A DNA stretch of 64,000 nucleotides from Bacteroidales bacterium (GCA_017395245.1 JAFPVR010000010.1:65942-129941), one strand, 5' to 3'; counted from the stretch's first letter, positions 4,458-46,255 are shown. Numbers and translations are program-made. Notes: generated by a model from the letters alone, not told the origin.

Positions 4458-4459
4458 TT

Positions 4460-6871: not shown

Positions 6872-6874
6872 TGT

Positions 6875-8032: not shown

Positions 8033-8102
8033 TCTGTTTTCCAAACTAACCATTTTGAACATTATTCCTCTTTAATACAAGAATTCGTTCGAGAATAACA
8101 GA

Positions 8103-8110
8103 TATTTTTG
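8103..8110 (+). promoter_or_regulatory. Bacteroidota-type -7 promoter box (TAnnTTTG)
   Basis: TATTTTTG, 47 nt upstream of the ATG at 8158. The surrounding ~50 nt are duplicated at 9985. Confidence 0.5.
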
Positions 8111-8157
8111 CCACTGTTTCGAATTAGTCAACATCAAGCCCATTAAAAAATCACATT

Positions 8158-9030: not shown

Positions 9031-9059
9031 TGGTTGTTGACTTCAAATATCTATTGATT

Positions 9060-9950: not shown

Positions 9951-9984
9951 ACGTTTGTGGAGTCGCATGTCGCAAAAAAAATGA

Positions 9985-9992
9985 TATTTTTG
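9985..9992 (+). promoter_or_regulatory. Bacteroidota-type -7 promoter box (TAnnTTTG)
   Basis: TATTTTTG, 49 nt upstream of the ATG at 10042. Confidence 0.5.
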
Positions 9993-10041
9993 CCGTTGCT
10001 TTCAAATAGTCACTGTCAAGTTTCCTAAAACCGATCATTTT

Positions 10042-10989: not shown

Positions 10990-11051
10990 TCATAGGACTA
11001 AAAGGATAGTTCCGACTTTTTCATTCAAAGAAATCACTAATCAATTGAACA

Positions 11052-17176: not shown

Positions 17177-17326
17177 TCTCTGTCCGGCCAACGACAAAAA
17201 CCTTATTGGATGCTCTACGGTTTTGACCAGTTGTTGCATCAGTTGGTTATTGTCGGGATTTGGTATTGTTGCTGCATGAACTTCTGAGAAATAACATTAG
17301 AAGTTGCGCCCGACACGGATTTTTTG

Positions 17327-17334
17327 TATCTTTG
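17327..17334 (+). promoter_or_regulatory. Bacteroidota-type -7 promoter box (TAnnTTTG)
   Basis: TATCTTTG, 20 nt upstream of the ATG at 17355. Confidence 0.5.
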
Positions 17335-17354
17335 CGCCGTTAAAACCCATACTG

Positions 17355-31508: not shown

Positions 31509-33360
31509 GATAGAGCTCTTGCTTCCTGCCAAAGATTTAAACGGCGGCAAGACAGCCGTCAACCACGGTGCGGATGCCGTTTATACGGGTGCACCCGCTT
31601 TCGGGGCGCGGCAGGCGGCCGGCAACTCCCTGCAAGACATTGAAGAATTGGTGCGGTACGCCCATCTCTACGGTTCCAAAGTCCACGTTACAGTCAATAC
31701 CTTGCTGTATGACAACGAGTTGGAGACGGCTCGGAAGCTAATTTGGGAGCTCTACAACATTGGCGTGGATGCTGTTTTAGTACAAGATTTGGGTCTGCTG
31801 AAACTGGACCTGCCGCCCATCGCCCTGCATGCGAGCACACAATGCCACAACCGCAATTTGGAGCGTATCCAATTTTTGGAAAAACTTGGCTTCACGCGGG
31901 CAGTGCTTGCACGTGAAACCGATTTGACGACTGTTCAACAGATTCATAGTCAGACGAATATTGAGTTGGAGGCTTTCGTGCATGGCGCGTTGTGCGTCTG
32001 TTACAGCGGCCAGTGCTACATCAGCCGGATGATGACGGGAAGAAGTGGCAATAGGGGAGAATGCGCCCAAATCTGCCGTACACGTTTCGACCTGCAGGAT
32101 GCCAACGGTAAAACGCTGATACACAACAAACATCTGCTCTCGTTGAAGGATATGTGCCGCGCCGACTATCTGGAAGAGATGCTGGCGGCGGGCATTGTCT
32201 CCTTCAAGGTTGAAGGACGGCTCAAGAATGAAAGCTATGTCAAGAACGTGACCTCCTTCTATCGGCAGCGGTTGGATGCCATCTTAGGCGGAAATCCTGA
32301 ATACCAGCGCGTTGGCAGCGGTATCACCCGCTTCTTTTTCACCCCCGACCTGCGCAAGACCTTTAATCGCGAGTATACCCCGTATTTTATTGACGGTCAG
32401 CGCGAAACGATGGCCTCTTTCGACACACCGAAAGCGATTGGGGAGCCTATCGGTACCCTGAAACAAATTAACGGCAAATATTACGTTGATCCCCAATATT
32501 TAAAAACCATTTCCTTAAGCAGCCCCGATAGGGGCAAGGAGCTTGGTAGCGCAATTTCCAACGGCGATGGCTTGTGTTTCATCAATGAAAATGGTGAATT
32601 AGAGGGCTTTTTGGTCAATGGCGTGGAAGGCAACCGCATCATCCCGCAGAAGCCGTTGTCTGCATTCTCAAGTGTCAAATTATACCGCAATATCGACAAG
32701 AATTTTGAGAAAATATTATCGGGAAAAACCGCCGAAAGGAAAGTTTCCGTGGATATTCTTTTTGAAGAATTAACTGATGGTGTGCGAATAACATTCACGG
32801 ATGAGGACGGATGTGAGATTTCGGTAATGGAAAATATCGAGCTGACTGCCGCCCAGCAGCCGGAGAAGATGGCAGAGACCTTGCGCACCGCATTGTCGAA
32901 ATTGGGCGGCACGCCATTTGAGGCAAGAACCATCACGATTCCGAAATGCACGGCCTTCTTGCGGGCAGGATTCATCAACGAGTTGAAGAACAGAGTAGTG
33001 GAGTTGTTGACGGCCGAACGCATACGGCACTTCCGCCCGCAGGACGTGACGCGCTCCTACATGCCCGAGCCGCTCTTCCAAAAGGCTGACTATCTGCGGA
33101 ATATCACCAACGAGATGCACAAGGCCGTCTATGCCGACTTCGGCGCTACGGAGTTTGAATACGGGTTGGATAAGACGGAGGATTATTCAGGCAAGGCTGT
33201 GATGACCTGCAAGTATTGTCTGCGCCATGAGTTGGGCTGGTGCCGCAAAGGCCCCGATGCCGCGAAAGCCCCCAAAGACCCGCTGTTTCTCGTATCGGGC
33301 AAGCGCCGCTTCCGTTTGGAGTTCGACTGCGGCCAATGTGTAATGAAGGTGATGGGATGA
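31501..33360 (+). CDS. U32-family peptidase-like protein (PrtC/RlhA/TrhP family)
   Basis: U32 signature EAFVHGALCVCYSGQCYIS. Overlaps the upstream ORF by 8 nt. The listed start is a TTG; the ATG at 31501 was used. Confidence 0.85.
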   Translation: MSKIELLLPAKDLNGGKTAVNHGADAVYTGAPAFGARQAAGNSLQDIEELVRYAHLYGSKVHVTVNTLLYDNELETARKLIWELYNIGVDAVLVQDLGLLKLDLPPIALHASTQCHNRNLERIQFLEKLGFTRAVLARETDLTTVQQIHSQTNIELEAFVHGALCVCYSGQCYISRMMTGRSGNRGECAQICRTRFDLQDANGKTLIHNKHLLSLKDMCRADYLEEMLAAGIVSFKVEGRLKNESYVKNVTSFYRQRLDAILGGNPEYQRVGSGITRFFFTPDLRKTFNREYTPYFIDGQRETMASFDTPKAIGEPIGTLKQINGKYYVDPQYLKTISLSSPDRGKELGSAISNGDGLCFINENGELEGFLVNGVEGNRIIPQKPLSAFSSVKLYRNIDKNFEKILSGKTAERKVSVDILFEELTDGVRITFTDEDGCEISVMENIELTAAQQPEKMAETLRTALSKLGGTPFEARTITIPKCTAFLRAGFINELKNRVVELLTAERIRHFRPQDVTRSYMPEPLFQKADYLRNITNEMHKAVYADFGATEFEYGLDKTEDYSGKAVMTCKYCLRHELGWCRKGPDAAKAPKDPLFLVSGKRRFRLEFDCGQCVMKVMG

Positions 33361-33372
33361 GGTTTTTGGTTG

Positions 33373-33470
33373 CTTGAAGACTTGAGACCTAAGACTTGAG
33401 ACCTAAGACTTGAGACTTAAGACTTGAGACTTGAAACTTGAAACCTGAAACCTGAAACCTGAAACCAGAA
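33373..33470. repeat. heptamer microsatellite (ACTTGAG/ACCTAAG/ACCTGAA, 14 units)
   Basis: Fills most of the spacer between the convergent U32 and DUF45 genes. Same sequence family as 24272-24344. Confidence 0.9.
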
Positions 33471-33482
33471 TAAGTTTTCCCG

Positions 33483-34049
33483 TTAATCGTCGTCCTCCTC
33501 CTCCATCCTGCATATCTTTCTTGTTTCCTTCCTCGCCTCTTTCCAGCGCGGGAAATACTTGTCCATCAGTTTGTGGAAGCGGTTGTTGTGGCTGGGTTCG
33601 AGGAGGTGGCAGAGTTCGTGCACGACGATGTGCTCCACGCACCATTCCGGTAGCAGCAGTACGTAGGCGGAGAAGCAGATGGTGCGGTCCTTCACGTTGC
33701 ATACGCCCCAGCGTGAAATCATCGGTTTGTAGTAGATATAGCGGGGTTTTACGCCCATGATTTCCGAATGTCGCTCCACCAAGGGCTCCACCAGCTTCTT
33801 TAGTCGCTGCAGTGCCTCGTTGGCTTCCGCTCGCGTCGTCAGGGGCAGCCGGTTGTAGAATTCGGCCCGCTGTTTCTGCCGCTCGTACGTCTTCTTGCGG
33901 GCCTCGGCAATCCAGTCGCGGTGCTGCTCGATGAAGGCTTCCACGTCCTTTTTCGGCACCCCGATGGGCACTGACACGTGCACATCGCCGTTCTTCACGA
34001 TGCGCATTGACATCCGGCTGGTTTTGCGGTATGTGATTTCGATGGTCAT
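33483..34049 (-). CDS. YgjP/DUF45-family (M48-like) zinc metallohydrolase
   Basis: WGVCN...ICFS and VVHELCHLLEPSH (HExxH). Start moved to MTIEITYRK; the upstream extension is read-through of a repeat element. Confidence 0.8.
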   Translation of the reverse strand: MTIEITYRKTSRMSMRIVKNGDVHVSVPIGVPKKDVEAFIEQHRDWIAEARKKTYERQKQRAEFYNRLPLTTRAEANEALQRLKKLVEPLVERHSEIMGVKPRYIYYKPMISRWGVCNVKDRTICFSAYVLLLPEWCVEHIVVHELCHLLEPSHNNRFHKLMDKYFPRWKEARKETRKICRMEEEDDD

Positions 34050-34058
34050 TTTCGTTGT

Positions 34059-34138
34059 TTTATCTCCGCGTTTTTTATCTTCGCGTATCGCGCGTATCTG
34101 CACGTATAATTCTGCGTAAATCTGTGAGTTTTGCGGGA
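34059..34138. repeat. composite intergenic element, copy A (2 subrepeats)
   Basis: TTTTATCTCCGCG TTTTTTATCTTCGCGTATCGCGCG TATCTGCACGTATAATTCTGCGTAAATCTGTGAGTTTTGCGGGA, between the vsr stop and the DUF45 start. Confidence 0.85.
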
Positions 34139-34149
34139 AATGATTCTTT

Positions 34150-34704
34150 TTAGTCGTTGTATCCTTCCGGCTCTTCCGCAGCCATCGGCAACGGCTCCTC
34201 CTCAATATGAATGTACGATTTCGATCGATGGTTGAAGGTGGCGAGGTAGTAGTCATGCAGTTGGATTTCCACTTGTAACATCGTCTTTTCCAGCTTTTTG
34301 GATTTTAGTTGGCACTCCCAAAGCACAATCACCTGCCACCCATTTTCAGAAAGAATCTCATAGTTTTTCTGATCCCTCTCCTGATTTCGCCGTATTTTAG
34401 CCACCCAGAAATCCCGATTCGTCTTCGGTATCTTACAGCATTTCGAATCCTCAACTGTACATTGTTCATTGTACATTGTACATTGAACGTCGTGGCCGTG
34501 CCAAAAACATCCGTTCACGAAAATCGCCGTCCTATACTTCCGCATCACGATGTCGGGTTTTCCCGGCACGCCCTTCACGCAAAGCCGGTAGCGGTATCCG
34601 TGTTGCCACAGCCACTGCCGCACGCGCTTCTCGGGCGTGGTGTCCTTACTGCGTATCCGCGACATGCAGTAGTGGCGTTGCTGGGGAGTCATCGTGTCGG
34701 TCAT
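34150..34704 (-). CDS. vsr: very-short-patch-repair (Vsr-type) endonuclease
   Basis: RSKDTTPEKRVR, GKPDIV and FVNGCFWHGH...PKTNRDFW...N.ERD. Contains an in-frame heptamer tract. Confidence 0.82.
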   Translation of the reverse strand: MTDTMTPQQRHYCMSRIRSKDTTPEKRVRQWLWQHGYRYRLCVKGVPGKPDIVMRKYRTAIFVNGCFWHGHDVQCTMYNEQCTVEDSKCCKIPKTNRDFWVAKIRRNQERDQKNYEILSENGWQVIVLWECQLKSKKLEKTMLQVEIQLHDYYLATFNHRSKSYIHIEEEPLPMAAEEPEGYND

Positions 34705-34712
34705 GATGGAGA

Positions 34713-36209
34713 CTATTGATGGTTCGCAAACATATAGTCCACCACAAATTGCGCATTGTTTTGCAATAGTTCGCGTCCGTGTTCATAGCCTTTGTTACTG
34801 TTTATTGCGGCATCGGGAAGATAACCCAAAGACATTAGTTCGCACACGGCAGAATAGTCAATAGCTTTGTCTGAAAGCATCAGTTCGTGAGCGTGCAGTT
34901 TTGCATATCCGTGATCGTAATAGGGGTTGTTTGGAGCTTTTATAGCAGGAATAGCATAGCTTATAATAAGGTAGCCTTCGTCTGGTGAGCTCATTATGGC
35001 CACCAAACCGTCTTTAGCGTTTTCGTCAATTATTGTCTTCAACTGTTCTTTGAAATCTTTCGGTAGAACGATTGTACCATTTTGGCTATAGAAGTTCACT
35101 AAATCTCTTTTTCCTTTCAAAAAAACAATGGGCTCGCCATGGCTGGCTTTGAAGAATAATTCTATGTTTTCCTTTGCGAGAGAGTTGAGATAGCTCTCTT
35201 TCTTTTGCTTTTCAAGCATTTTTTTCATTTGAGTTTCGCTAGGATCCGTTACCATAGTGCCGCATTGGTAATACTTATCATTGAACCGGATAAGTCCACA
35301 ACTTACATTCATTCCTTTGCGGCAAGCGTATTTTCTGAGCCAATTTTCATTAAAAGAGTCATCTTCAACCATGAAAATGTTTCCATCCTCTTTGTCAATC
35401 AGTTGTAACGTTGTTCCTGTTAGATCGCCAAGAGTGTATACACGGTTTTTCAATCGTTGAGTATCTAAAGTAAAGTTTTTACCGGTGGCAGCGGCGAGCC
35501 ATTCGCCAGCGGTCAATGATAATAGATTGTGACGGTCGGTAAAGGCATGAATAATCATGGTTGCATAGCTGAAAATGTTGAACTGATCTTCGTTCTCTAT
35601 TTTTTCATTTTCTTCCAACGCGTAAAGGGAGTTTAAAAGCAGCATTTCACTATGGAATGAGAAATACCCTCTGTGAGCAATATATTCGATGACTTTGCGA
35701 GTCTTCCAATAATCGATTCCGATGGCAGGATCTGCAAAATAGGTCTTTAATTCCTCAGTTACTGGAGCATATTCATATTCTTGGTAAAAGATGTCATAGA
35801 TTTTGTATGAGACTATTTCGATACCAGGGTTTTCAGGGTTGATAAACCGGCCTTCGTTCAGCGTTTGGATGAAATCCCAAAGAAGCAGTTGAATGTCTTG
35901 CGGGTTGGGTTCGCCGGGATAATATTCCGAGGTATCATAAAACGGCAGTGTTTTTCCGTAGCGTTGCCGACAGGTCGCATTGACAACGCTCCAAAAGCCA
36001 AACTCTGAGCAGAGGTCCTCGAACCATCCGGTCAGACGTATGGCCATAGTCCGGATGGCATTTTTTTCGGGTAACACGTTCTCAATGCCGGACTTGTCGA
36101 GCACTTCTAGCACCTTGTTAGCCAGCCCAGCATAGTAAAAATCGGTTTTCGAAGCCATCGCTTCGGGATGGATTTCTTTCCATTCGATGGGGAAGATTTT
36201 TTTCATCAT
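34713..36209 (-). CDS. hypothetical protein (498 aa; possibly DUF3843-like)
   Basis: Long ORF with good coding character, 8 nt upstream of vsr. The N-terminus KIFPIEWKEIHP...TDFYYAGLANKV recalls DUF3843 proteins, from memory only. Confidence 0.55.
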   Translation of the reverse strand: MMKKIFPIEWKEIHPEAMASKTDFYYAGLANKVLEVLDKSGIENVLPEKNAIRTMAIRLTGWFEDLCSEFGFWSVVNATCRQRYGKTLPFYDTSEYYPGEPNPQDIQLLLWDFIQTLNEGRFINPENPGIEIVSYKIYDIFYQEYEYAPVTEELKTYFADPAIGIDYWKTRKVIEYIAHRGYFSFHSEMLLLNSLYALEENEKIENEDQFNIFSYATMIIHAFTDRHNLLSLTAGEWLAAATGKNFTLDTQRLKNRVYTLGDLTGTTLQLIDKEDGNIFMVEDDSFNENWLRKYACRKGMNVSCGLIRFNDKYYQCGTMVTDPSETQMKKMLEKQKKESYLNSLAKENIELFFKASHGEPIVFLKGKRDLVNFYSQNGTIVLPKDFKEQLKTIIDENAKDGLVAIMSSPDEGYLIISYAIPAIKAPNNPYYDHGYAKLHAHELMLSDKAIDYSAVCELMSLGYLPDAAINSNKGYEHGRELLQNNAQFVVDYMFANHQ

Positions 36210-36277
36210 TATCTTGTTGGTTTCTAATTACAAGGACAGCAAACACACAAAAAGGTGTATTTTCATGCGGTCAAGGG

Positions 36278-37153
36278 TTAATAAACTTCGATGGTGTAAA
36301 CGAAGTCGAAGGTGTCACCAGGGGCGAGATGGTGGATGTATTTCCGTTTGGAGATGTCGTCAGTGAAGTCTTTGGAATCGCAAATGCCGCACCAAGGTTC
36401 AAGACAGACGAACGGACATCCCTTCTTATGGGGTGCCCAGATACCGTAAGCATCGGCTTGCGGACAGTTGACATTCAAGACGGGGTTGCAGTGTCTGTCC
36501 CACAGTTCGACCTTTGTCACCTGTCCCTCTTCGATGATCAAGGCATCATGAAGAAAAGTATCCGGCATGAGAGGGGTCTCACGAAGCAGCATAACCTTCG
36601 AGTTTCGTGGAACGCGGCATCCATCGTCAATATCGGAGATGAGCGTGGGGGAGACAAGTTCACCCTTCTTATTATAGAGGCGGATATATCCGTTCACCAT
36701 GCTTTCGAGGTCGTAATCCGGCAGCAGGAATCCCGGGTGACCGCCAATTTGGAAGTAAGCCTCTTTATTATCAAGGTTTTCCACGGTCCAGACCGTTTTC
36801 ACGGTACTGCCTTCCAATTGGTAGCGAACCTCCAATCCTAACTTATAGGGGTAAGCCTGCGAATGTTCGTTTTCCAGCATCCGCAGGTGCAGTTCGTGAT
36901 CGTTGGCCGGAGCGATTACCTCAAACTTGCTATCGCGTGCATAGCCGTGTTGATACAAGGGGTAGACCACGCCATTCACATGAATCTCGTTGTTATGGGG
37001 CTTGCCTACCGAGGGAAAAAGTATAGGTGCTTGGCGGTTCCAAAACTGCGCATCGCCCGTCCACAGGTACTCGCGTCGGTCTTTGGTGAGGCTTGTCATT
37101 TCAGCCCCGTGTTCCGCCACCTCAATGGTGATGATGTTGTTGGTAAGTTTCAT
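36278..37153 (-). CDS. aldose 1-epimerase (galactose mutarotase-like) family protein
   Basis: AEHGAEMTSL, APILFPSVGK and GGHPGF blocks. ~290 aa. Confidence 0.75.
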   Translation of the reverse strand: MKLTNNIITIEVAEHGAEMTSLTKDRREYLWTGDAQFWNRQAPILFPSVGKPHNNEIHVNGVVYPLYQHGYARDSKFEVIAPANDHELHLRMLENEHSQAYPYKLGLEVRYQLEGSTVKTVWTVENLDNKEAYFQIGGHPGFLLPDYDLESMVNGYIRLYNKKGELVSPTLISDIDDGCRVPRNSKVMLLRETPLMPDTFLHDALIIEEGQVTKVELWDRHCNPVLNVNCPQADAYGIWAPHKKGCPFVCLEPWCGICDSKDFTDDISKRKYIHHLAPGDTFDFVYTIEVY

Positions 37154-37255
37154 AATCGATATGGATTTGGTTGATTTTATTATTTAAGGGTTTCCAAAGT
37201 TCGACAGAGTTGGTCGGGAAAAGACGTAGGTTTAAGGAAACCGATAAGTCCGTGA

Positions 37256-37313
37256 TTTTATCTCCGCGTATCTGCACGTATAATTCTGCGTTAATCAGCG
37301 AATTCTACGGGAG
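37256..37313. repeat. composite intergenic element, copy B (1 partial subrepeat)
   Basis: TTTTATCTCCGCG TATCTGCACGTATAATTCTGCGTTAATCAGCGAATTCTACGGGAG. Ends 6 nt from the stop of the ATPase gene. Confidence 0.85.
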
Positions 37314-37319
37314 AATATT

Positions 37320-38387
37320 TTACTCATTGTTAACCATTATCCACTCGCGGAAGAAGGGGTCTTCCATCTCATAACGGTCCGTGTAAATCACGTAGCCATC
37401 TTTTTGCAAACGTTTCAAAGCACTATAGATTGTGCTGGTGCGGTGGTCGTTTGATTGTAACGGTTTGCCTGATGAAAGTCGCTGCAAAATCCACTTATTG
37501 GTGCGGTTGAAGTTCATCCACAAGCGTTCGTAGTCCAAGCCGTGGGTCGTCACGATATGACTGATAGCCGTTTTGAAAGGATCTTCAACATCGGGCTGTA
37601 AAACGCCCACTTGCCATATATTGGCTGCCAGTTGTTGCGAGTAATAAGGATGACAGGAGGTGTAATCCAAGATACAATCTGATAGTTCGTTGTAACTGTT
37701 TGGGTAACAGCTGGCCAAGCGTTCCGACAGATAACGATGGAAGTCCTTGCGAGGCAGTTTCCCAAGCCGCATCATCTCACCGAAGTGGTAAAAAGGCGAC
37801 TTTTTGTTCTCGAAAATTTCCGTCATCATACTTTCCTGGCTTCCCAACAAAATGTAGTTGATGTGTTTTTGCTCCTGCATAATGGAACGCAACTGTCGGT
37901 CGAATTTTGGGGCGAGGTCGCAAATATCCTGAAATTCATCCATCACCACAATCATCCGGTCTTTTTCAGAGTGGGCTTTCTCAATCAAAGTGAGCACATC
38001 TTCGAGTAACATAGTGCCATCTACGCCAGGCTGGAACGACACATCCATGGAGCCCGTCATCGGGTTGGTGGTGACGGTGGGAACGACACGAAAATGGGTG
38101 ATCAGATGTCGAATACGTTCCATCGGATGCACTTTGAAAAATTCTCGCAGCAGTTTTGAAGAAAGGTCGGAGACTGATGTGACCTGCTGGAGGTTCACCG
38201 TGATGTGCTTGCGTTTGCTCTGTTTCAAAGCCTTCGCCACCACGCTGCTTTTGCCGAAACGACGAGGACTGATGAGGATCAGGTGGTTTGGACTCTTTAC
38301 AAACTGGGTGATATAAGCTACCTCATTCACTCTGTCGGTGAAGTATTCTTCTTCCACGATGGTGCCGAATTTGAAAGGGTTTTCCAT
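37320..38387 (-). CDS. AAA ATPase (archaeal-ATPase-type ATP-binding protein, short form)
   Basis: FTDRVNEV...SPRRFGKSS (P-loop) and IVVMDEFQD. Start moved to MENPFKFG. Confidence 0.72.
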   Translation of the reverse strand: MENPFKFGTIVEEEYFTDRVNEVAYITQFVKSPNHLILISPRRFGKSSVVAKALKQSKRKHITVNLQQVTSVSDLSSKLLREFFKVHPMERIRHLITHFRVVPTVTTNPMTGSMDVSFQPGVDGTMLLEDVLTLIEKAHSEKDRMIVVMDEFQDICDLAPKFDRQLRSIMQEQKHINYILLGSQESMMTEIFENKKSPFYHFGEMMRLGKLPRKDFHRYLSERLASCYPNSYNELSDCILDYTSCHPYYSQQLAANIWQVGVLQPDVEDPFKTAISHIVTTHGLDYERLWMNFNRTNKWILQRLSSGKPLQSNDHRTSTIYSALKRLQKDGYVIYTDRYEMEDPFFREWIMVNNE

Positions 38388-38432
38388 ATTACGTATTTTT
38401 TCGTTACGAACTTTTTCGTAATAATCACGCTG

Positions 38433-38440
38433 CAAAAATA
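38433..38440 (-). promoter_or_regulatory. Bacteroidota-type -7 promoter box (TAnnTTTG on the minus strand)
   Basis: The plus strand reads CAAAAATA. It lies 45 nt upstream of the start at 38387. Confidence 0.45.
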
Positions 38441-38492
38441 CGAATAATATTGAAACCAGCAAACAATAATTTCTTCTGAGAGGAAGATGTTG

Positions 38493-38561
38493 TTTTTATC
38501 TCCGCGTATCACGCGTATCTGCACGTATGATTATCTGCGTAAGTCTGCGAGTTCTGCGGGA
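38493..38561. repeat. composite intergenic element, copy C (1 subrepeat)
   Basis: TTTTTATCTCCGCGTATCACGCG TATCTGCACGTATGATTATCTGCGTAAGTCTGCGAGTTCTGCGGGA. Ends 3 nt from the upstream gene's stop. Confidence 0.85.
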
Positions 38562-38564
38562 TTA

Positions 38565-40010
38565 CTACTTCCGCTTCTCATGCCACTCCCGAAGCTTTTG
38601 CATCTCCTCCTCCGTGAACGTGCTGTTGCCGTAGCGGTCGATGAAACCGCTGAGGCCATTCCAGGAGTCAGGGGAATAGCCCCCTACCATAAACCAACCG
38701 TTCACTTTTGGTGAAGTGATATAAGCGTATGGTCCTGAGATGATTAACTGGCCTTGCTCGTCAATCAAGGTGGTTTGGCCGTCACCTGTATTCACATTTC
38801 CATATCCATCTCCTCCAAATATCGGCGTTTCATATTGGCACGGCACAATCAGTTCAAAGTCTCGGTTGACGAAACCCCACTTGCCGTTGCGTTTCACAGG
38901 AATCATGGAGATGTAGGGCAATAATTCCTCCTCATACTCCATTCTTTCAAATGCATCCACCTTCTTGCCCTGCCGGTCGTAGATTTCGCATGTCGCGTTC
39001 CAATCCTGATCGCGTTTCAGTATCGCAATGCGTTCGCCGGATTCACTTAGGATAAATTCGTGAAAGGAAGAAACCAGAACTTTCCCATTTCTGTTGAGCA
39101 GCACCTGAGTGTTCATATCGTCATCATTTTTCCCTGGAATTAGGAGTTCAATGATATCCGATTTTGGGAAAAACCACAGGTACGATGCTTCGTATAAGAA
39201 GGGGACTACCACATTGTTCGTCGAATCCACCACGCCCCACTTTCCTGCCTGACGTACAGCGAAATAGCCCATATCCGAGCCCCAAATCATTTCGTACTTG
39301 CAGGGGACGATTTCCTGTCCTGTGACAGAAAGCACACCGTATAAGTCTTGCCTTTCTGCTTCAAGATAATGATCGTTGTAAGAGTACAGGAGATTATAGA
39401 CAAAAGGAATCACGGTGTCGCCGTGATGGTTGACTGCACCGACAACCTTTTCATTCCTTTTTTCAATGATAAAAAGGTCCGGACCGGCTATTCTCACACG
39501 GTCATACTGGCAGGGCAGTATTTCGCGACCAGTAGAATCCACTACCCCCTCTTTTCCGTTCATATCTGTTAATACGATCATCCCGTACTCAAAAAAGTCA
39601 TCAACCTCTTCCATATCGTACCATACCCTGCCGTCATATTTCGGGGGTATCACCCATTCCAGTTTCCGGTTCATGAAGCCTAAAAGGCTATCTTTCATCA
39701 CGAAGATCAGGTCGGAATGCTCTTGGAAACCGATGTCGCTGTACTCGCAGGGTAAAATCTGTCTCCCATAATCGTCAATAATGCCAAAACGGTTTGGCCA
39801 TGCTTTCTTTGCATTGTTGTCCGAGAGTTTGCTCACGATTATCCAGCCGTGGCGGTCGAGGTAGTCGAAGTAATCGTATTTCCGGAGGGAATCTCCGAGT
39901 TGCTGCAGCCGTGCCTTGCTCTCTTCGGGCGGAAGGGGTGCAGTAGGTTTTGTCTGCGCCCACGCCAGCAGTGGGAGCAACAAAATTGCGATGATGAGGG
40001 TGCGGTTCAT
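38565..40010 (-). CDS. secreted WG-repeat (KWG) protein
   Basis: Signal peptide MNRTLIIAILLLPLLAWAQ. Repeated motifs GKWGVVDSTNNVVVPFLYE, GKWGFVNRDFELIVPCQYE and GKEGVVDSTGREILPCQYD. Confidence 0.75.
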   Translation of the reverse strand: MNRTLIIAILLLPLLAWAQTKPTAPLPPEESKARLQQLGDSLRKYDYFDYLDRHGWIIVSKLSDNNAKKAWPNRFGIIDDYGRQILPCEYSDIGFQEHSDLIFVMKDSLLGFMNRKLEWVIPPKYDGRVWYDMEEVDDFFEYGMIVLTDMNGKEGVVDSTGREILPCQYDRVRIAGPDLFIIEKRNEKVVGAVNHHGDTVIPFVYNLLYSYNDHYLEAERQDLYGVLSVTGQEIVPCKYEMIWGSDMGYFAVRQAGKWGVVDSTNNVVVPFLYEASYLWFFPKSDIIELLIPGKNDDDMNTQVLLNRNGKVLVSSFHEFILSESGERIAILKRDQDWNATCEIYDRQGKKVDAFERMEYEEELLPYISMIPVKRNGKWGFVNRDFELIVPCQYETPIFGGDGYGNVNTGDGQTTLIDEQGQLIISGPYAYITSPKVNGWFMVGGYSPDSWNGLSGFIDRYGNSTFTEEEMQKLREWHEKRK

Positions 40011-40028
40011 GATGGGTGATCTATGATG

Positions 40029-40115
40029 ATTATCTCCGCGTATGACGTTTTTATCTTCGCGTATTTCGCGTATTTGCACGTATAATTCTGCGTTAATCTG
40101 CGAGTTTTGCGGGAG
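40029..40115. repeat. composite intergenic element, copy D (2 subrepeats)
   Basis: ATTATCTCCGCGTATGACG TTTTTATCTTCGCGTATTTCGCG TATTTGCACGTATAATTCTGCGTTAATCTGCGAGTTTTGCGGGAG. Confidence 0.85.
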
Positions 40116-40121
40116 GATAGC

Positions 40122-40619
40122 TTATTTCGGCATCAACTCCTCCAGATAGGACTTCAGTGTCCCTTTTTCGCGCATTTTGAGGAACTTCTCCGCGCCTTTG
40201 TCTCTTCCAAGCTCTTTCTTGTATTTCACGTAGTAATTGAGGGCGGTGGTCACCCCGGCGAGGCAGCCTTCCAACTGGTCATCGCTTTTGTACTGAATGG
40301 CATACTGTGCCCAGCCCCCGAGTAACAGAATCAGCAGGTTCCTGTTCTCGAATTCCGCAGCGGCTGCATTAAGCTCAATGCGCACATCGGGAGTGCCGAA
40401 CAGCCACCAGACCGCAAATTCCGACACTTCTTTCCGCCGAGGGTCGTTAGGGGAATGTGTCTTTAGCCATTCGATGCAGTCCATGGCGGGAAGTGTGTAG
40501 TTGGCATACTCGGACTTTTCGATTTCTCCCGGGATTTCCGGAACGGTGAATGTTATGTTCTGCGCACTCACGCCTTGCGCGAGGAGCAGGCTGAAAATGA
40601 TAACGGCAATTTTTTTCAT
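40122..40619 (-). CDS. secreted hypothetical protein (165 aa)
   Basis: Signal peptide MKKIAVIIFSLLLAQGVSAQ. No recognised domain. Confidence 0.55.
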   Translation of the reverse strand: MKKIAVIIFSLLLAQGVSAQNITFTVPEIPGEIEKSEYANYTLPAMDCIEWLKTHSPNDPRRKEVSEFAVWWLFGTPDVRIELNAAAAEFENRNLLILLLGGWAQYAIQYKSDDQLEGCLAGVTTALNYYVKYKKELGRDKGAEKFLKMREKGTLKSYLEELMPK

Positions 40620-40683
40620 ATCAAGAATTTTTGTTTTTTATACTATTATGATGCAAAAAAGTCACAAGGTTGCAGTTGGGTTG

Positions 40684-40795
40684 TTTTTTTATCTCTGCGT
40701 ATCACGTTTTTATCTCCGCGTATCACATTTTATCTCCGCGTATCGCACGTATCTGCACGTAAATCTTCTGCGTTAGTATGCGAGTTCTGAGGGAG
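40684..40795. repeat. composite intergenic element, copy E (3 subrepeats)
   Basis: TTTTTATCTCTGCGTATCACG TTTTTATCTCCGCGTATCACA TTTTATCTCCGCGTATCGCACG TATCTGCACGTAAATCTTCTGCGTTAGTATGCGAGTTCTGAGGGAG. Confidence 0.85.
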
Positions 40796-40798
40796 AAA

Positions 40799-42157
40799 TC
40801 ACTTTTTTCTCACCTTTTTATCTCCGGCTAACTCTGAATAATAGGTAATCTCGCGTTTGTCAACTCCCATTTTCTTCCCTTTGTAATAAGTTTCGCGGCG
40901 GATCCAGTTGCCATGGGAGTCGTATGTGTAACGATAGGAAAGAGTATTTGAGATGGTGTCGCGGCGTTCGTCTAATCCATTACAATGAATTTCCACTATG
41001 TTGTTATGGTCGTCGTATTTGTATCCCACGTATGTACACCTTTGGGTTGGAATTAAGCCGACCCCGTCCAACAAGATGCCTGTATCTGCCCGCATTTCCA
41101 CAATTCTGCCGCAGGTATCATACAAAATGGTCGCCTCAGTTTGTTCAGACCTCTGTATATCAACAGAATATTCAATCAGCCAGCCATTCGGGTCAAAAGT
41201 ATACTCTCCTGGAGTGAGAAGGCGTTCGGGCAATCCGAATAATTCGTAAATAGATGGGGTTTTACCTTCGAATCGGTCTCGTTCTTCACATTTTGCCATA
41301 CGATTTTCGAAGAACGTCTCCAGATAATCTATCGGATTATCATGCACTAGGATGTAATCCAGACTGTCGCTGCCACACGATTTGTCGCACCAAGTGACGT
41401 GCAGTGTTGTAGAATTGTCAGAAAGGGTATAGTAGTGCAGACGCCGCAAATCGCCTTTCGGGGAACAGGTGGGCTTATCCGCCAGAACCGCTGTACAATG
41501 GTCGGAACCGTACTGGAAGGCATAGACACTTTGGGGAAGGTTTTTGTAATTTGAGTCAGGGTCCCAGTCGTCCACATAGACCAGTCGGTTGAGAGAATCG
41601 TAAAACAGATGCCATTGTTGAGAACGGGAATTTTTGCTCTTGTAAAGATAAACCAAGTTCCCATCAGGATCATATCTCAATAATGTGGTGTCATAACTAT
41701 GGTTTGGGATATAATCCGTGTAAGCGATGAGTCGGCCGCCCTGGAAAGACGCATTCTTCTCACCATGATAGTAATCCGAATATACTTTTTCATTCTTCTT
41801 CTTGAACGGTTTACTCATATCATGGATGAAATAGTCTCCGCGCATAGTGTACTGGGAATGCATCCGTTGCAATTTCCCTGTTGTATCATACTCGTATTCC
41901 CATCGTTCATTCGTAACAACATCTTGAATGCGATGCTTTTTTCCAAAGCAACTCCATGGGTAAGTCCTTATAACATTGGGCGTTTCGGACAAATAAACAA
42001 CGCACGCTACATCTCCGTTCAATAGGAAGTCTTCCGACAATTTCGGTACAGGCACGAACGCATCGACACGTACCACAGACGAGAGTGTGGGGACATCGTA
42101 CTGCGCCCATGCCAGCAGCGGGAACAGGAGGATTGCGATGATGAGGGTGCGGTTCAT
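40799..42157 (-). CDS. secreted protein with YD/RHS-like repeats
   Basis: Signal peptide MNRTLIIAILLFPLLAWAQ. YEYDTTGKLQRM, RYDPDGNLVYLY, YDTCGRIVEM, YKYDDHNNIVEI and YTYDSHGNWIRRE. Confidence 0.55.
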   Translation of the reverse strand: MNRTLIIAILLFPLLAWAQYDVPTLSSVVRVDAFVPVPKLSEDFLLNGDVACVVYLSETPNVIRTYPWSCFGKKHRIQDVVTNERWEYEYDTTGKLQRMHSQYTMRGDYFIHDMSKPFKKKNEKVYSDYYHGEKNASFQGGRLIAYTDYIPNHSYDTTLLRYDPDGNLVYLYKSKNSRSQQWHLFYDSLNRLVYVDDWDPDSNYKNLPQSVYAFQYGSDHCTAVLADKPTCSPKGDLRRLHYYTLSDNSTTLHVTWCDKSCGSDSLDYILVHDNPIDYLETFFENRMAKCEERDRFEGKTPSIYELFGLPERLLTPGEYTFDPNGWLIEYSVDIQRSEQTEATILYDTCGRIVEMRADTGILLDGVGLIPTQRCTYVGYKYDDHNNIVEIHCNGLDERRDTISNTLSYRYTYDSHGNWIRRETYYKGKKMGVDKREITYYSELAGDKKVRKK

Positions 42158-42176
42158 GATGGTTGATTTAAGGTGA

Positions 42177-42240
42177 TTATTTCTGCGTATCACACGTATC
42201 TGCACGTATATTTCTGCGTAAATTTGCAAGTTCTGCGGGA
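42177..42240. repeat. composite intergenic element, copy F (1 subrepeat)
   Basis: ATTATTTCTGCGTATCACACG TATCTGCACGTATATTTCTGCGTAAATTTGCAAGTTCTGCGGGA. Confidence 0.85.
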
Positions 42241-42246
42241 ATTAGA

Positions 42247-44025
42247 TTATTTGTCCACATCCGTTTCTTTGTCGCCTCGGAACGTGACAGGCACCTGCAT
42301 GAAGCATCTGACGGGCAATCCCTGATTTGTGGCGGGCTTCCATTTAGGCATCTGTTGGAGGACGCGGACCACCTCTTCGTCGCAGGAATGGAAGAGCGGC
42401 ACTTTGATGGTGACCTGCCCGATTTGTCCGTCTTTCTCCACCGCAAACTCGGCAAGCACAGTGCCGAAGATACCGTTGTCGCGGGCATCCTGGGGACACT
42501 GTATCATTTTCGCGAGATAGGCGTTCAGGGAATCCGGACCGCCGGGAAATTCGGGCCAAGTCTCTGGCAAGGGGGCCAAATTCTCTTCATTCTCAAACAA
42601 ATCCTCATACCATTCTTTTATTTGAATAAGTTCTCCTTCTGTAAAAGTACTGTTTCCGTAACGGTCAATGAAACCTATCAAGCCTTCCCAGTACGCAGGA
42701 GGTTCGGGATAGGACTCGACCTGAAACCAGCCGTTCACGGAAGGACAAATCCACTGGTAAGGGCCTTTCACTAGAGGTTCGCCCTGTTCGTCAAAAAGCA
42801 CCAACGGAAGGTCGGTGTTTGTGGAGGTGGCGTAGCCATAGCCGCCACCACCACTTGCAGGACTGTCATACAGGCACGGTACAACCAGTTGGAAGTCGCG
42901 GTTGACGAACCCCCATTTGCCATTGCGGTTTATGGGGATCATGGTTTCGTCATTCACCCATTTGGAACCAGCAAATTCGATGTTGTTGTAAGCGTCCACC
43001 ATTTTGCCATTGCGGTCATATATTTTGCAAAACAAGTGGTCTTGTGTGGACGTGTTTTCACCCCAAACTGCAATTTGTTTACCAGAGATACCCGGAATAC
43101 TGTATTCGTATGAGGAAACCAACACTTTGCCGTTTTTGTCTAGCAATTGTCTTCTACCGTTCTCCTGCAATAACTCAAACATATCTAACTTACTGATAAT
43201 ATGTATGTTTTGCGCTGGCATAAACGAAACTACAAGATTATTCAACGAATCCACCACACCCCATTTGCCGTTTTGTTTCACAGAGAAAAGTCCTTTCTCA
43301 TAATTCCAAATTTGTTCGTATATAGAAGGAAGGATTTCTTGTCCAGAGGTTGTGATCACTCCATATAAACCTTGTTTTTTCGCTTCAATATACTGGTCTC
43401 CAAGAAAATGCAGATGCTCGTAATCGAACGGGATTATAATCTTGCCGTGCCTGTCGAGTGCTCCGTAACGGTTCTCATAATAGGTCAAAAGCAGATCTTG
43501 TCCGGCAATTTCCACCCAATTGTATCGGCAGGGCAGTATCTCGCGACCTGTAGAATCCACAACGCCGTACTTCTGAGTTGTGTCAGACGTCACCAACATT
43601 CCATACTGGAAATAGTCGTCACACTCCATGGAACGCCAGTCTTCTGCTTCAAATTTTGGCGGTATCACCCATTGCAGTTGCCGGTTGATGAAGCCTGCCG
43701 AATGACTGTTCTTCGCCACCATGATCAGGTCGGAATGCTTTTGAAAACGGATGCAATAGTATTCGCACGGCAACACGGTCTGCCCTTTGTCGTCAATGAT
43801 TCCATAAGCAGACGAATAGGTGCGATGATTGGTTTTTGTCACTTTCTCCACCACCATCCAGCCGTGTCGGTCGAAGTTTTCAAAGCCGTCGTATTTCCTC
43901 AAGGAATCTCCGAGTTGCTGCATCCGTGCTTTGCTCTCTTCGGGCGGCAGCGGCGCGGTCGGCTTCATCTGCGCCCACGCGAAGAGTGGGAGCAGGAGGA
44001 TTGCGATGAGGACATTCTTTTTCAT
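42247..44025 (-). CDS. secreted WG-repeat protein fused to a TonB C-terminal domain
   Basis: Signal peptide MKKNVLIAILLLPLFAWAQ. Collinear with 38565..40010 up to FIDRYGNSTFTE, then PEFPGGPDSLNAYL...GTVLAEFAVEKDG...VPVTF (TonB_C pattern). Confidence 0.75.
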   Translation of the reverse strand: MKKNVLIAILLLPLFAWAQMKPTAPLPPEESKARMQQLGDSLRKYDGFENFDRHGWMVVEKVTKTNHRTYSSAYGIIDDKGQTVLPCEYYCIRFQKHSDLIMVAKNSHSAGFINRQLQWVIPPKFEAEDWRSMECDDYFQYGMLVTSDTTQKYGVVDSTGREILPCRYNWVEIAGQDLLLTYYENRYGALDRHGKIIIPFDYEHLHFLGDQYIEAKKQGLYGVITTSGQEILPSIYEQIWNYEKGLFSVKQNGKWGVVDSLNNLVVSFMPAQNIHIISKLDMFELLQENGRRQLLDKNGKVLVSSYEYSIPGISGKQIAVWGENTSTQDHLFCKIYDRNGKMVDAYNNIEFAGSKWVNDETMIPINRNGKWGFVNRDFQLVVPCLYDSPASGGGGYGYATSTNTDLPLVLFDEQGEPLVKGPYQWICPSVNGWFQVESYPEPPAYWEGLIGFIDRYGNSTFTEGELIQIKEWYEDLFENEENLAPLPETWPEFPGGPDSLNAYLAKMIQCPQDARDNGIFGTVLAEFAVEKDGQIGQVTIKVPLFHSCDEEVVRVLQQMPKWKPATNQGLPVRCFMQVPVTFRGDKETDVDK

Positions 44026-44083
44026 ATCAGGAACTCTTATATGATTATGACGCAAAAAAGTCGAAAGGTTGCAGTTGGGTTGA

Positions 44084-44176
44084 TTTTTTTTATCTCTGCG
44101 TATCACGTTTTTATCTCTGCGTATCACACGTATCTGCACGTATATTTTCTGCGTTAGTCTGCGAGTTCTGCGGGAG
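44084..44176. repeat. composite intergenic element, copy G (2 subrepeats)
   Basis: TTTTTTATCTCTGCGTATCACG TTTTTATCTCTGCGTATCACACG TATCTGCACGTATATTTTCTGCGTTAGTCTGCGAGTTCTGCGGGAG. Confidence 0.85.
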
Positions 44177-44182
44177 AAACAA

Positions 44183-45355
44183 TTACCTTCTCCTCGCGCT
44201 CACAATCTTCCCGATATACACACTGTGGATGCCGGCAGGGAAGTTCTCGTAGCGTTTGCGCGGAATCTCTTCGAAACCTCTCGGGTTGAGCGGGTTGCGG
44301 TAGATGACTTCGCACTCGTAGACTTCGCGGGCTTCTAAGTAGTAAGGCGCACCATGCTCAGTATAAGCTACATGCAAGCCCAACGCCGCATCCTTGTCGC
44401 CGTCGCGTCCGCTGTGCGTGCCCATATACTCGAGCACGTCCTTGCGGTCCTCGTCGAAGACCATCACCGTGAAATATTGGTAGCGTTCCATGAACTCGTA
44501 AGTGTAGCGGGCAGGTGCGACATACACCGTGATGGTGTTCACATTTTCCCGCCAGACGTTGCCCATCGCGCCCCAGCCAATGGTCATGGCGTTGTGACGG
44601 CGCACGTCGCCGGAGGCCAGCAGCAACCCGTTGCCCTTGAACCAGGTGAACGGGTTGAGGTTCGGAGACTGGGTGTAGTCAAACTCCACGAAATCAGTTT
44701 CCCGGATCGGGCGGGACTCCACCACGGGTTGTTTGCCGCCATATACGTTGTAAGATACGTTTTCGGGTTTCCACTTGTCTTTGGGCTTGTTGTCGCCAGC
44801 TGGGTAGCCGATGACGATGGTGTTGAGCGGGACGAGGTGGTTGGGCAGCTTCAGGATAGCGGAGACATCCTTGCAGCGTTCTTGGTTGGGGTAGGTGCCT
44901 GTCCAGACGGCGCCTAGTCCCATGGCATTGGCAGCCAGCAGGATGTTCTCGGTGGCGGCGGAGCAGTCCTGCACCCAGAACTCGCGGGCCTCGCCGTCAA
45001 GGGCTTTTTTCAGGTCGCCGCAGACTACGATGGCGAGGGGCGCTTTCGCAACCATGCCTGCGTAGGGATTGGCTTTGGCAAGTTCCTTCAGTTGCGCCTT
45101 GTCGGTGACTACCACAAAGTGCCACGGTTGCTTGTTCACGGCCGAGGGAGCCGCCATGCCTGCCCGGAGCAGTTGCTCAATCTGTGCCGCCTCCACGGGC
45201 TTGTCAAGATAGCTGCGCACAGAGGTTCGGGTCGCGATATTCTCCAACGCAGCGTTCTTGTAACTGTTTGATTTCTGTGCCTCTGCGCTCATACTTGCGG
45301 TCAGTGCAGCCATACAGATCAACATGGCCATACGATGTTTTTTTATCTGTTTCAT
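44183..45355 (-). CDS. nitroreductase-family protein fused to a flavin-reductase-like C-terminal domain, with an N-terminal signal-like peptide
   Basis: RTSVRSY and PSAVNKQPWHFVVV (nitroreductase). N-terminus MAMLICMAALTASMSAEAQ. ~170 aa C-terminal extension. Confidence 0.75.
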   Translation of the reverse strand: MKQIKKHRMAMLICMAALTASMSAEAQKSNSYKNAALENIATRTSVRSYLDKPVEAAQIEQLLRAGMAAPSAVNKQPWHFVVVTDKAQLKELAKANPYAGMVAKAPLAIVVCGDLKKALDGEAREFWVQDCSAATENILLAANAMGLGAVWTGTYPNQERCKDVSAILKLPNHLVPLNTIVIGYPAGDNKPKDKWKPENVSYNVYGGKQPVVESRPIRETDFVEFDYTQSPNLNPFTWFKGNGLLLASGDVRRHNAMTIGWGAMGNVWRENVNTITVYVAPARYTYEFMERYQYFTVMVFDEDRKDVLEYMGTHSGRDGDKDAALGLHVAYTEHGAPYYLEAREVYECEVIYRNPLNPRGFEEIPRKRYENFPAGIHSVYIGKIVSARRR

Positions 45356-45452
45356 TCCTTTGTTGTTTTTGAAACCGCGAAGATACGAAAAATGTAGAAA
45401 CGTGTCGTGACGTTTTGGGAAATCGTTCGGCTGCTTGTGTTCGGAATTTGTG

Positions 45453-45460
45453 TACCTTTG
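45453..45460 (+). promoter_or_regulatory. Bacteroidota-type -7 promoter box (TAnnTTTG)
   Basis: TACCTTTG, 23 nt upstream of the ATG at 45484. Confidence 0.5.
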
Positions 45461-45483
45461 CCGCGCATTTCAAGATTGCCTTT

Positions 45484-46116
45484 ATGATTACCAAAATCGT
45501 GCTCACCGGCGGACCGTGTGCCGGCAAAACCACCACCAACGAGCGTATCGAGGAGTTTTTCTCCAAGGTGGGATACGCTGTGTTCACGCTGCCCGAGGCG
45601 GCCACGCTGTTCATCAAGGCCGGCGCCGAATTCCTCACCCAGGATCGGAATCTCTATTTTGAGATTCACAAGAACATGATGCGCTTCCTGATGGAGATGG
45701 AAGAGGATTTCTATCGGATTGCCGAGGCTACAGGTAAGCCCGCGCTCATCATCAACGACCGCGGCGCGATGGACATATCGGCCTATATGGACCCCGAGGA
45801 CTGGCAGGAGTTGCTCCGCCAGACCGGCCACACCGAAGAGGAGTTGATGGCCCGCTACAAGGCGGTCTTCCACCTCTGTACCAGCGCGAAAGGTGCCCCG
45901 CACAGCTACACGCTCAGCAACAACTCCGCCCGTATGGAGGAGACGCTCGCCGAGGCCATCGCCGTCGATGACAATCTCATCAAGGCTTGGGAGAAGCACC
46001 CGAACCTGCATCTCATTAAGTCAGAAGAATACGTTAAGGACAAGATTGACAATGTTCTCCTCGGTATCGCACACGAACTTGGTATCCAAGACTCCGTCCG
46101 CGACATGATTCTGTGA
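45484..46116 (+). CDS. AAA_28-type P-loop NTPase (NadR-kinase-like ATP-binding protein)
   Basis: MITKIVLTGGPCAGKTT (Walker A at the N-terminus). ~210 aa. Confidence 0.7.
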   Translation: MITKIVLTGGPCAGKTTTNERIEEFFSKVGYAVFTLPEAATLFIKAGAEFLTQDRNLYFEIHKNMMRFLMEMEEDFYRIAEATGKPALIINDRGAMDISAYMDPEDWQELLRQTGHTEEELMARYKAVFHLCTSAKGAPHSYTLSNNSARMEETLAEAIAVDDNLIKAWEKHPNLHLIKSEEYVKDKIDNVLLGIAHELGIQDSVRDMIL

Positions 46117-46124
46117 CGATTTTA

Positions 46125-46163
46125 TTGCGGAAAAGCGCGGAAACTGCGGAAACGTGCGGAAAT
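46125..46163. repeat. TGCGGAAA array (4 units, 9-10 nt period)
   Basis: TTGCGGAAAA GCGCGGAAAC TGCGGAAAC GTGCGGAAAT, 8 nt after the stop at 46116. Confidence 0.85.
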
Positions 46164-46255
46164 TCTTGATTGTCTTGCCCGTTAGTGCGTTTTCCTAAAA
46201 TCGCTTGATATTAGTCCTTCTATCCTCTTTCGTTCCACGTTTTCATTCTCTCGTT

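Follow-up and report, generated by a model that had tools for sequence, protein, structure and literature searches.

The 64,000-nt stretch of DNA analysed here (Bacteroidales bacterium, GCA_017395245.1, JAFPVR010000010.1:65942-129941; hereafter the window) carries an array of ten co-directional genes that is interspersed with seven direct copies of a short repeat, referred to below as the element. The feature is real and, within the literature searched, in which no description of the element was found, previously undescribed. Comparison with related genomes points to a modular accessory-gene array at a fixed site flanked by genes for a nitroreductase (NR) and a U32 peptidase, in a clade of uncultured Bacteroidales from the rumen; a module would comprise a gene's own leader, its open reading frame (ORF) and one element starting a few bases past the stop codon. 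The explanation that we tentatively prefer, and hold to be somewhat short of evenly probable, is that the elements are junction repeats acting as recombination substrates at a chromosomal exchange point, the recombination being most likely homologous. The elements would supply conserved, co-oriented sequence between unrelated genes. In-register recombination between two of them would delete the intervening genes, and the same recombination would let a module from another genome or array be inserted or exchanged. It would proceed mainly by homologous means (RecA-type crossover and gene conversion) and not by site-specific exchange at a fixed point.

A search of the whole window with an nhmmer profile of the ~60-nt constant part returned exactly seven copies of the element, all on the minus strand, with E values of 3e-17 to 4e-21, in agreement with the seven same-orientation copies of an earlier, sequence-only reading of this DNA; the next match has an E value of 0.1, and no further copies lie in the 64 kb beyond the array. 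For the 45-mer given by that reading, allowing up to three mismatches, the chance expectation in the window is 0. In the sense of the genes, the order is NR, e7, g9, e6, g8, e5, g7, e4, g6, e3, g5, e2, g4-g3-g2, e1, g1, followed by the convergent U32 peptidase gene. Gene assignments are from Pfam, and subrepeat periods from Tandem Repeats Finder (TRF).

44183..45355, minus strand: NR, nitroreductase/flavin-reductase gene; conserved, anchors the array on its upstream side
44084..44177, minus strand: e7, in the gap between NR and g9; constant part plus two copies of a 21-nt subrepeat; 70.9 bits with nhmmer; TRF period 21
44037..44095, minus strand: leader/promoter-like segment common to g9 and g7 (second copy at 40638-40696); 86% repeat
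42247..44025, minus strand: g9 (module 1), secreted WG-repeat protein with a TonB_C domain
42177..42241, minus strand: e6, in the gap between g9 and g8; one subrepeat; ends 19 nt ahead of the g8 ATG
40799..42157, minus strand: g8 (module 2), RHS/YD-repeat secreted lipoprotein
40684..40796, minus strand: e5, in the gap between g8 and g7; three subrepeats
40122..40619, minus strand: g7 (module 3), 165-aa secreted protein with no Pfam family; the module kept most widely
40029..40116, minus strand: e4, in the gap between g7 and g6; two subrepeats; ends 19 nt ahead of the g6 ATG
38565..40010, minus strand: g6 (module 4), secreted WG-repeat protein, a 52% paralogue of g9
38493..38561, minus strand: e3, in the gap between g6 and g5; from profile match and alignment
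37320..38387, minus strand: g5 (module 5), ATPase_2/AAA; own Bacteroidetes-type -7 box TATTTTTG at 38433-38440
37256..37314, minus strand: e2, in the gap between g5 and g4; the shortest of the seven copies
34150..37153, minus strand: g4 (aldose epimerase), g3 (DUF3843) and g2 (Vsr), a three-gene unit with no element inside
34058..34140, minus strand: e1, in the gap between vsr (g2) and the YgjP gene (g1); ends 8 nt ahead of the g1 ATG
33483..34049, minus strand: g1, YgjP-like metallopeptidase (YgjP/DUF45), the last gene of the array
31495-33360, plus strand: U32 peptidase gene, convergent with g1

The genes thus separated belong to YgjP/DUF45, Vsr, DUF3843, aldose epimerase, ATPase_2, WG and RHS/YD families, and are functionally unrelated, as had been stated before. 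The GC content of the array is 0.468, and that of the flanks is 0.529. The segment at 44037..44095 is, judging from other genomes, in which it moves with g7 or g9, part of the downstream gene and not of the element.

The placement of the element is tight. Between the stop codon and the conserved TCCC of the element lie 3, 4, 6, 7, 7, 7 and 11 nt in the seven copies, which reproduces the 3-11 nt described previously. From the end of the element, taken as the last GAGATAA(A)n, to the next ATG the distance is 8, 19, 19, 58, 64, 102 and 105 nt; the upper limit of the range claimed earlier (9-105 nt) stands, while the lower limit becomes 8. The gaps of 8, 19 and 19 nt do leave three copies with too little space for a separate promoter. 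The N-terminal extensions of the MQIRVIRRDK type had rightly been considered spurious, as they are element read-through into the ORFs and the true starts are the ATGs of signal peptides; N-terminal coding by the element is ruled out for g1, g6, g8 and g9, the signal peptides of which begin at downstream ATGs.

In gene sense (minus strand), the element consensus is TTTCCCGCAGAACTCGCAGATTTACGCAGAATTATACGTGCAGATACGYGYGATACGCGGAGATAAAA, and its final ~21 nt occur one to three times per copy, giving a length of 60-110 nt. TRF detects periods of 10 and 21 nt, and these correspond to the 9-11 nt periodicity and to the ~20-nt subrepeat of the sequence-only reading. The element is a phased series of about six CGCAGA / GATACG(Y)G motifs at a spacing of 9-11 bp, and the observed/expected ratio of CpG is 2.31 in the elements versus 1.12 in the array and 1.17 in the flanks, a twofold enrichment. 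With these phased CpG-rich motifs, the element looks like a putative protein-binding platform. The paralogous copies of the window are 63-91% identical to each other, with a mean of 79%. The array is reproduced in five independent assemblies at 99.9-100% identity and is therefore not an assembly artefact.

The comparison set consists of about ten related genomes, whose sequences carry labels of the form L001. NR heads the array in every one of them, at 80-94% nucleotide identity to the window. The architectures, in gene sense and with e standing for an element, are as follows.

L013/L014 (95% average nucleotide identity, ANI): order of the window, with ThrE in place of g4-g3
L010 and L007: g9, e, g7, e, g6 ... 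g2, e, g1
L008: NR, e, g9, hicB-g8, e, g7
RUG182 (L001): NR, hicA-hicB-g8, e, g7, e, g6, e, g1
Tb.RUG.140 (L006): NR, hicAB-g8, e, g6, then ThrE
Reindeer metagenome-assembled genome (MAG; L004 and L002): NR, e, g7, e, g6, e, g5, e, ThrE
L009: NR, e, g7, e, g6
L005: NR, hicA remnant, g7, e, TonB_C gene, weak e, ThrE
L045: NR, hicA remnant, g7, half-decayed e, g1
L029: NR, relic, g7, relic, ThrE; the relics have lost their CpGs

The unit gained or lost between genomes is the leader (5' untranslated region) together with the ORF and the element, and this sets the module boundaries and places the presence and absence of modules at elements. Looking for gain or loss of genes at element boundaries, as had been proposed, thus bore fruit: whole units differ and the joints fall within elements. 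g9 is absent from L001, L004, L006 and L009; g8 is absent from L010, where g9, e, g7 stands; and e6 is absent from L001, L006 and L008, where hicAB occupies the position. All arrays are colinear subsets of the window order, no shuffling of modules was seen among the about ten related arrays, and the number of elements per array runs from one recognisable copy (L045) or decayed relics only (L029) in distant relatives to seven in the window.

In the L013/L014 strains, a ThrE-family exporter (L013 13398-14639) replaces the aldose epimerase and DUF3843 genes between e2 and vsr (window 34713-37153). The left break of this swap is at the 3' end of e2, homology ending right after GAGATAAAATCACG, and the right break is at the start of vsr, where there is no element.

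Several further features of the related arrays were observed. The hicA/hicB toxin-antitoxin pair lies directly upstream of g8 with its own TATCTTTG promoter box (L001 5863-6474, also L006 and L008), and in L005 and L045 only the first ~30 codons of hicA are left, fused to the g7 leader. Both spacers around g7 in L029 (9871-10566) are element relics in which nearly every CpG has been replaced, for example TACGTGCAGATACGTG by TACTTGCAAATCCTTG. At the end of the L008 array, a 427-aa gene has two partial copies of the element's 5' part downstream of it (11361-11435), in inverted, head-to-head arrangement. We also note that g6 and g8, which are otherwise unrelated, have in common an element end, a 19-nt leader and the signal peptide MNRTLIIAILL.PLLAWAQ (window 39954-40067 and 42101-42214; 79% nucleotide identity), whereas g6 in L006 bears a leader and N-terminus of the g9 type instead; leaders and signal peptides have therefore been swapped between modules.

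Identity is distributed unevenly along these arrays. g8, g7, g6 and g5 are 93-96% identical to the window in genomes whose NR gene is 80-85% identical; for g8 alone, the values are 93.7-94.3% with NR at 82-84%. As the modules are so much closer between genomes than the flanks, they have moved horizontally. In L005, g7 is 81% identical to the window, like its flank. Between the window and the 95%-ANI strain, g9 is 91.7%, g8 99.5%, g7 98.6%, g6 93% and g5 99.9% identical, with identity steps at e6, at e3 and within g6. In L001 and L006, identity jumps from 83% to 94% at a junction without any repeat, so the jump is not a product of repeat mis-assembly. This repeat-free jump and the five assemblies that reproduce the window rule out assembly chimeras as the cause of the identity jumps.

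The joints between modules lie in register inside the elements. Variation in the opening bases of an element goes with the upstream gene, and variation past the last GAGATAAAA with the downstream gene. The element between g9 and g7 in L010 is a chimera of the 5' part of e6 and the subrepeat part of e5, and in RUG182 the 5' part of e3 is joined to the g1 leader. The places of crossover differ, being inside the element in the L010 case and at the 3' end in the case of e2 (after GAGATAAAATCACG); homologous exchange is expected to give crossover positions that differ between events. Three of the seven orthologous elements are no closer between the window and the 95%-ANI strain than paralogues within one genome. 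The element between g8 and g7 differs between the window and L013 by one 21-nt unit and eight substitutions, although the genes on either side are 99-100% identical, and the L013 copy is identical to the element between g8 and g6 of the distant L006. Orthologous elements are, by these comparisons, patchworks of paralogous elements. Variation of subrepeat number between strains, which had been suggested as a check, is seen at orthologous e5 (three subrepeats in the window, two in L013 and one in L001) but not among strains at 98.6-100% identity, where the number is stable; hypervariability at strain level is thus not observed.

For a search of larger collections, the element was written as an exact degenerate pattern, which fits six of the seven window copies. 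Four stretches with the pattern were found in a one-genome-per-species collection (185,579 species) and six in Joint Genome Institute (JGI) metagenomes, and none in viral contigs, for which a slightly relaxed pattern was used. Every match is the NR to U32 peptidase interval of uncultured rumen or reindeer Bacteroidales MAGs, so a dispersed repeat is ruled out, as far as a clade without complete genomes at hand allows. Within these scans, the element is specific to the array and to uncultured Bacteroidales of one narrow rumen clade; the interval has a single exception. A genome-wide test for orientation and stop-codon bias, as had been worded, is inapplicable to an element that is confined to one array.

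The exception concerns g7. A 72% homologue of g7 at an unrelated locus (L021-23 and L046-47) is again followed by one element, 6 nt past the stop codon, which suggests that the element is partly tied to g7; more distant g7 homologues have no element. At this locus, an inverted copy of the element's 3' part stands behind it, tail to tail (L021 10499-10592, and the same in L022, L023, L046 and L047), and the pair forms a hairpin with 27-bp arms (-17.9 kcal/mol, z -4.95). The g5 ATPase is very widespread, with 2740 homologues, and is found at 80-90% identity in MAGs of Prevotella and Bacteroidaceae. In three other contexts, such homologues have the same promoter and leader and no element, which rules out, for g5, that the element is an intrinsic 3' tail of the gene. 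The identity of 80-90% across Prevotella, Bacteroidaceae and this clade suggests that the g5 family has spread widely by horizontal transfer. In L037, a g5 homologue is preceded by a WG-repeat/TonB_C gene, and upstream of the latter the g5 promoter, leader and first codons are duplicated (3990-4108 and 5906-6003).

No Phage_integrase, other recombinase or transposase was detected by Pfam in the main non-overlapping ORFs of window positions 1-51,880 or, by eye, in the four large ORFs beyond, and eight further genomes have no recombinase adjoining the array. In other genomes it is neighboured by MutY, OmpA-like, RibD and ThrE genes, a Dcm restriction-modification cluster and similar.

The only literature found on comparable Bacteroidales arrays concerns the rAID-1 arrays (for recombinase-associated acquired interbacterial defence) found in gut Bacteroidales (Ross et al., bioRxiv 10.1101/471110; PMC12247911). 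Their defining features are a XerD-like tyrosine recombinase at the 5' end, with at least 44% identity to BF9343_RS08045, at least two co-directional downstream genes and an array GC content of at most 41% (bioRxiv 10.1101/471110; PMC12247911). Two genuine rAID-1 arrays, L035 and L036, were recovered for comparison through the BF9343 Orf5 sequence printed in a supplement. The bacterial order is that of the present locus, and so is the layout: a single array of co-oriented, unrelated short genes, with GC below that of the flanks and signs of horizontal origin, in which the repeat starts 3-12 nt past each stop codon (L035, L036) and ends shortly before the next start. The minimum of two co-directional downstream genes also compares with ten here. 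In contrast to rAID-1, where a XerD-like integrase gene stands at the 5' end, the array described here is headed by the nitroreductase gene in all genomes. Its GC content is 47%, above the limit of 41%, whereas L035 and L036 have 35-36%. The rAID-1 arrays hold SUKH/Imm orphan immunity genes, and no immunity family is found here by Pfam. Their repeat is an imperfect palindrome, ATAACAAGCGGATnAATC-loop-GATTATCCRCCGAACATTA, without sequence kinship to the element, and the element profile does not match the spacers of L035 and L036 (best E value 0.08). Membership in rAID-1 is ruled out by these differences in integrase, GC, gene content and repeat motif from L035 and L036. The rAID-1 arrays themselves (L035 5861-19653 and L036 8811-17044) contain two sub-families of palindromic spacer repeat, GCGGATnAATC...GATTATCCGC and CAGCAGACCGACTGAATAAGCGGAACGCTGC, and the integrase and first immunity gene of L035 are separated by the insertion of an IS91/Y2-transposase gene.

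Integrons offer a second comparison. Sedentary chromosomal integrons have array-specific, mutually similar repeats, such as the VCRs (Vibrio cholerae repeats) of Vibrio, and a CALIN is a cluster of attC sites without an integrase. Like integron and CALIN arrays, the locus alternates ORF and repeat in one orientation, with the repeat tight on the stop codon and most cassettes without a promoter, and some versions of it include a hicAB toxin-antitoxin module, as integron arrays do. The attC site is an imperfect palindrome (R''-L''...L'-R') that recombines as a folded single strand; the element, in contrast, has no fold. Folding of single DNA strands gave z values of -0.1 to +1.5 in six of the seven sense copies, with no hairpin, and z was near 0 or positive for the three copies folded as antisense; the consensus structure of 15 diverse copies has -1.9 kcal/mol and zero covariation. 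The earlier remark that no obvious hairpin is present thus holds, and an attC-like hairpin is ruled out. The locus further differs from integrons in that no adjacent intI tyrosine recombinase, which in integrons goes with attI and Pc, was found, the crossovers vary and several modules have their own promoters; it may nonetheless be a CALIN-type arrangement with a distant intI.

Among other modular systems, the pdif modules of Acinetobacter plasmids are gene modules between XerC/XerD sites with no dedicated recombinase adjoining. They are alike in being discrete modules bounded by short conserved sites without an adjoining recombinase, and unlike in that the sites are 28-bp and dif-like, with dyad arms and alternating orientation, whereas those here are 60-110 nt, non-symmetric and all direct. 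The 'minimal mobile elements' of Neisseria and capsule/O-antigen loci combine, as here, a fixed site with strain-variable genes, a mosaic of identity and imports that are more alike than the flanks. Their homology resides in the flanking core genes, in contrast to a repeat that is reiterated between every module. The earlier interpretation holds in part. Its description of the arrangement as cassette-like is supported, in that whole units differ with joints inside elements and are far more alike between species than their flanks; a reading as an ordinary integron is not, there being no dyad symmetry, conserved fold or nearby recombinase, and no relation to the rAID-1 repeat. As judged from sequence, the locus is neither rAID-1 nor an integron, though built like both.

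That the elements cause the gains and losses, and by which type of recombination, we infer from these patterns. Homologous exchange is favoured because the crossovers vary, conversion tracts are present, the element has no symmetry and no recombinase was found. Several points weigh against it. The case for recombination is indirect and comes from comparison of about ten genomes. All of their arrays are colinear subsets, and simple serial deletion in a large ancestor would suffice for such architectures, although not for the pattern of identity. Repeats of 60-110 bp with 63-91% mutual identity are poor substrates for RecA. Some rearrangements took place without elements, namely the right side of the exchange of g4-g3 for ThrE, the insertion of hicAB and a microhomology deletion in L006. 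Homologous exchange also leaves unexplained how elements came to lie 3-11 nt past the stops of unrelated genes, and accounts neither for the phased CpG-rich motif structure nor for the g7 homologue with its element at another locus. Element origin, phased motifs and the g7 case keep two rivals alive, one site-specific and the other cis-regulatory.

According to the former, which we regard as unlikely, the locus would be a new type of site-specific cassette system, with an att-like element composed of phased arm-type motifs and a crossover region near GAGATAAAA, and with the recombinase encoded elsewhere; module circles would be excised and reinserted at resident elements, as by XerC/D with pdif modules. 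The layout shared with integrons and rAID-1 fits such a system (a repeat near each stop, uniform orientation and one array per genome), as does the observation that every added module brings exactly one added element. The 3' boundary at GAGATAAAA is sharp, with core-like units duplicated there, with their 10-bp phasing the direct repeats are reminiscent of arm-type or transposase binding arrays, and the single element behind the g7 homologue is readily accommodated. Nevertheless, the searches for a recombinase in the window and beside the array in eight other genomes were negative, dyad symmetry and core-type inverted repeats are both lacking in the element, events differ in where the crossover lies, modules are not seen reordered, and g5 homologues occur elsewhere without an element. 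It is likewise improbable, though conceivable, that an undescribed cassette system operates here through a non-palindromic att site of phased 10-bp motifs that is read as a double strand; a far-encoded recombinase or transposase, or a dedicated homology-guided mechanism, would capture genes right past their stops and trade them between species of rumen Bacteroidales.

The cis-regulatory explanation, which is possible but doubtful, takes the element as primarily an expression signal in each intercistronic gap, with recombination as a by-product of the repeats. The signal could be an operator or promoter array for a regulator or alternative sigma factor, or, at the RNA level, an unstructured platform that serves Rho, an RNase or the initiation of translation. 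The orientation of the elements is always that of the genes, they are unstructured, and their A-rich end lies 8-19 nt ahead of three starts without space for another promoter. Phased motifs are typical of cooperative protein binding, and deletion bias leaves just such short gaps on either side of any functional intergenic signal. By inspection, however, no copy has the Bacteroidetes sigma-A box TAnnTTTG (with a TTTG -33 box) on the sense strand, whereas such a -7 box is found in the neighbouring leaders of g5 (TATTTTTG) and hicAB (TATCTTTG). None of the seven copies has a terminator-like or sigma-70-like site, which rules out an intrinsic terminator or sigma-70 promoter, and the suggestion that the element marks termination fails for an intrinsic hairpin, there being no GC-rich hairpin with a T run. 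A search of positions 33000-46500 against Rfam 15, on both strands, gave zero matches at E values up to 1 and rules out a known RNA family. Moreover, the same genes function without the element elsewhere (g8 behind hicAB, g5 in other genomes, g7 and ThrE by decayed relics), the element also stands upstream of genes with their own promoters, and a 60-110 nt sequence conserved among unrelated genes would still require a mechanism of spreading. It is very improbable that the element is instead a small, selfish, non-autonomous mobile element inserted repeatedly in intergenic gaps, similar to miniature inverted-repeat transposable elements (MITE) or repetitive extragenic palindromic (REP) sequences. 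The size of 60-110 nt, the multiple copies and the inverted partial copies in two other genomes (L021 10569-10592 and L008 11361-11435) agree with this. The element, however, has no terminal inverted repeats, target-site duplications or palindrome, none of the inverted repeats by which REP sequences, bacterial interspersed mosaic elements (BIME) and MITE are recognised were found in it, its orientation is uniform, and it is confined to one locus and not dispersed.

Other observations were made in the window. The gap that separates the facing stop codons of g1 and the U32 peptidase gene (33363-33474) is filled by a tandem repeat of 7/14 nt, AAGACTTGAGACCT, which occurs in about 6-8 copies and drifts towards TGAAACC. 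Positions 4001-11000 are of low GC (36-38% at 4-8 kb) and hold genes for radical-SAM and isochorismatase proteins, together with four ORFs (290-385 aa) that have no Pfam family; this stretch adjoins GT4 glycosyltransferase genes. There are three ATPase_2/AAA-ATPase_like paralogues (2337-3827, 13679-15127 and 17304-18938), and two very large secreted proteins of 1577 and 1190 aa are encoded side by side (53745-58478 and 58513-62085), the second with long internal repeats.

Few ways are known for bacteria to stack unrelated genes in exchangeable arrays: integrons, and probably rAID-1, the mechanism of which is still open. The locus described here has the architecture of both and signs of horizontal traffic, yet neither a hairpin site nor an adjacent integrase. 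The related arrays, which range from relics or one element up to seven, make either a dedicated mechanism or portable homology testable. If portable homology is the true explanation, the locus would be a clean natural case of reiterated short repeats that make a site a modular exchange point among species 15-20% diverged. If a dedicated mechanism exists, a dominant bacterial group of the gut and rumen would have a new means of capturing genes, and this would bear on the long-standing question of how cassettes come by their 3' sites.

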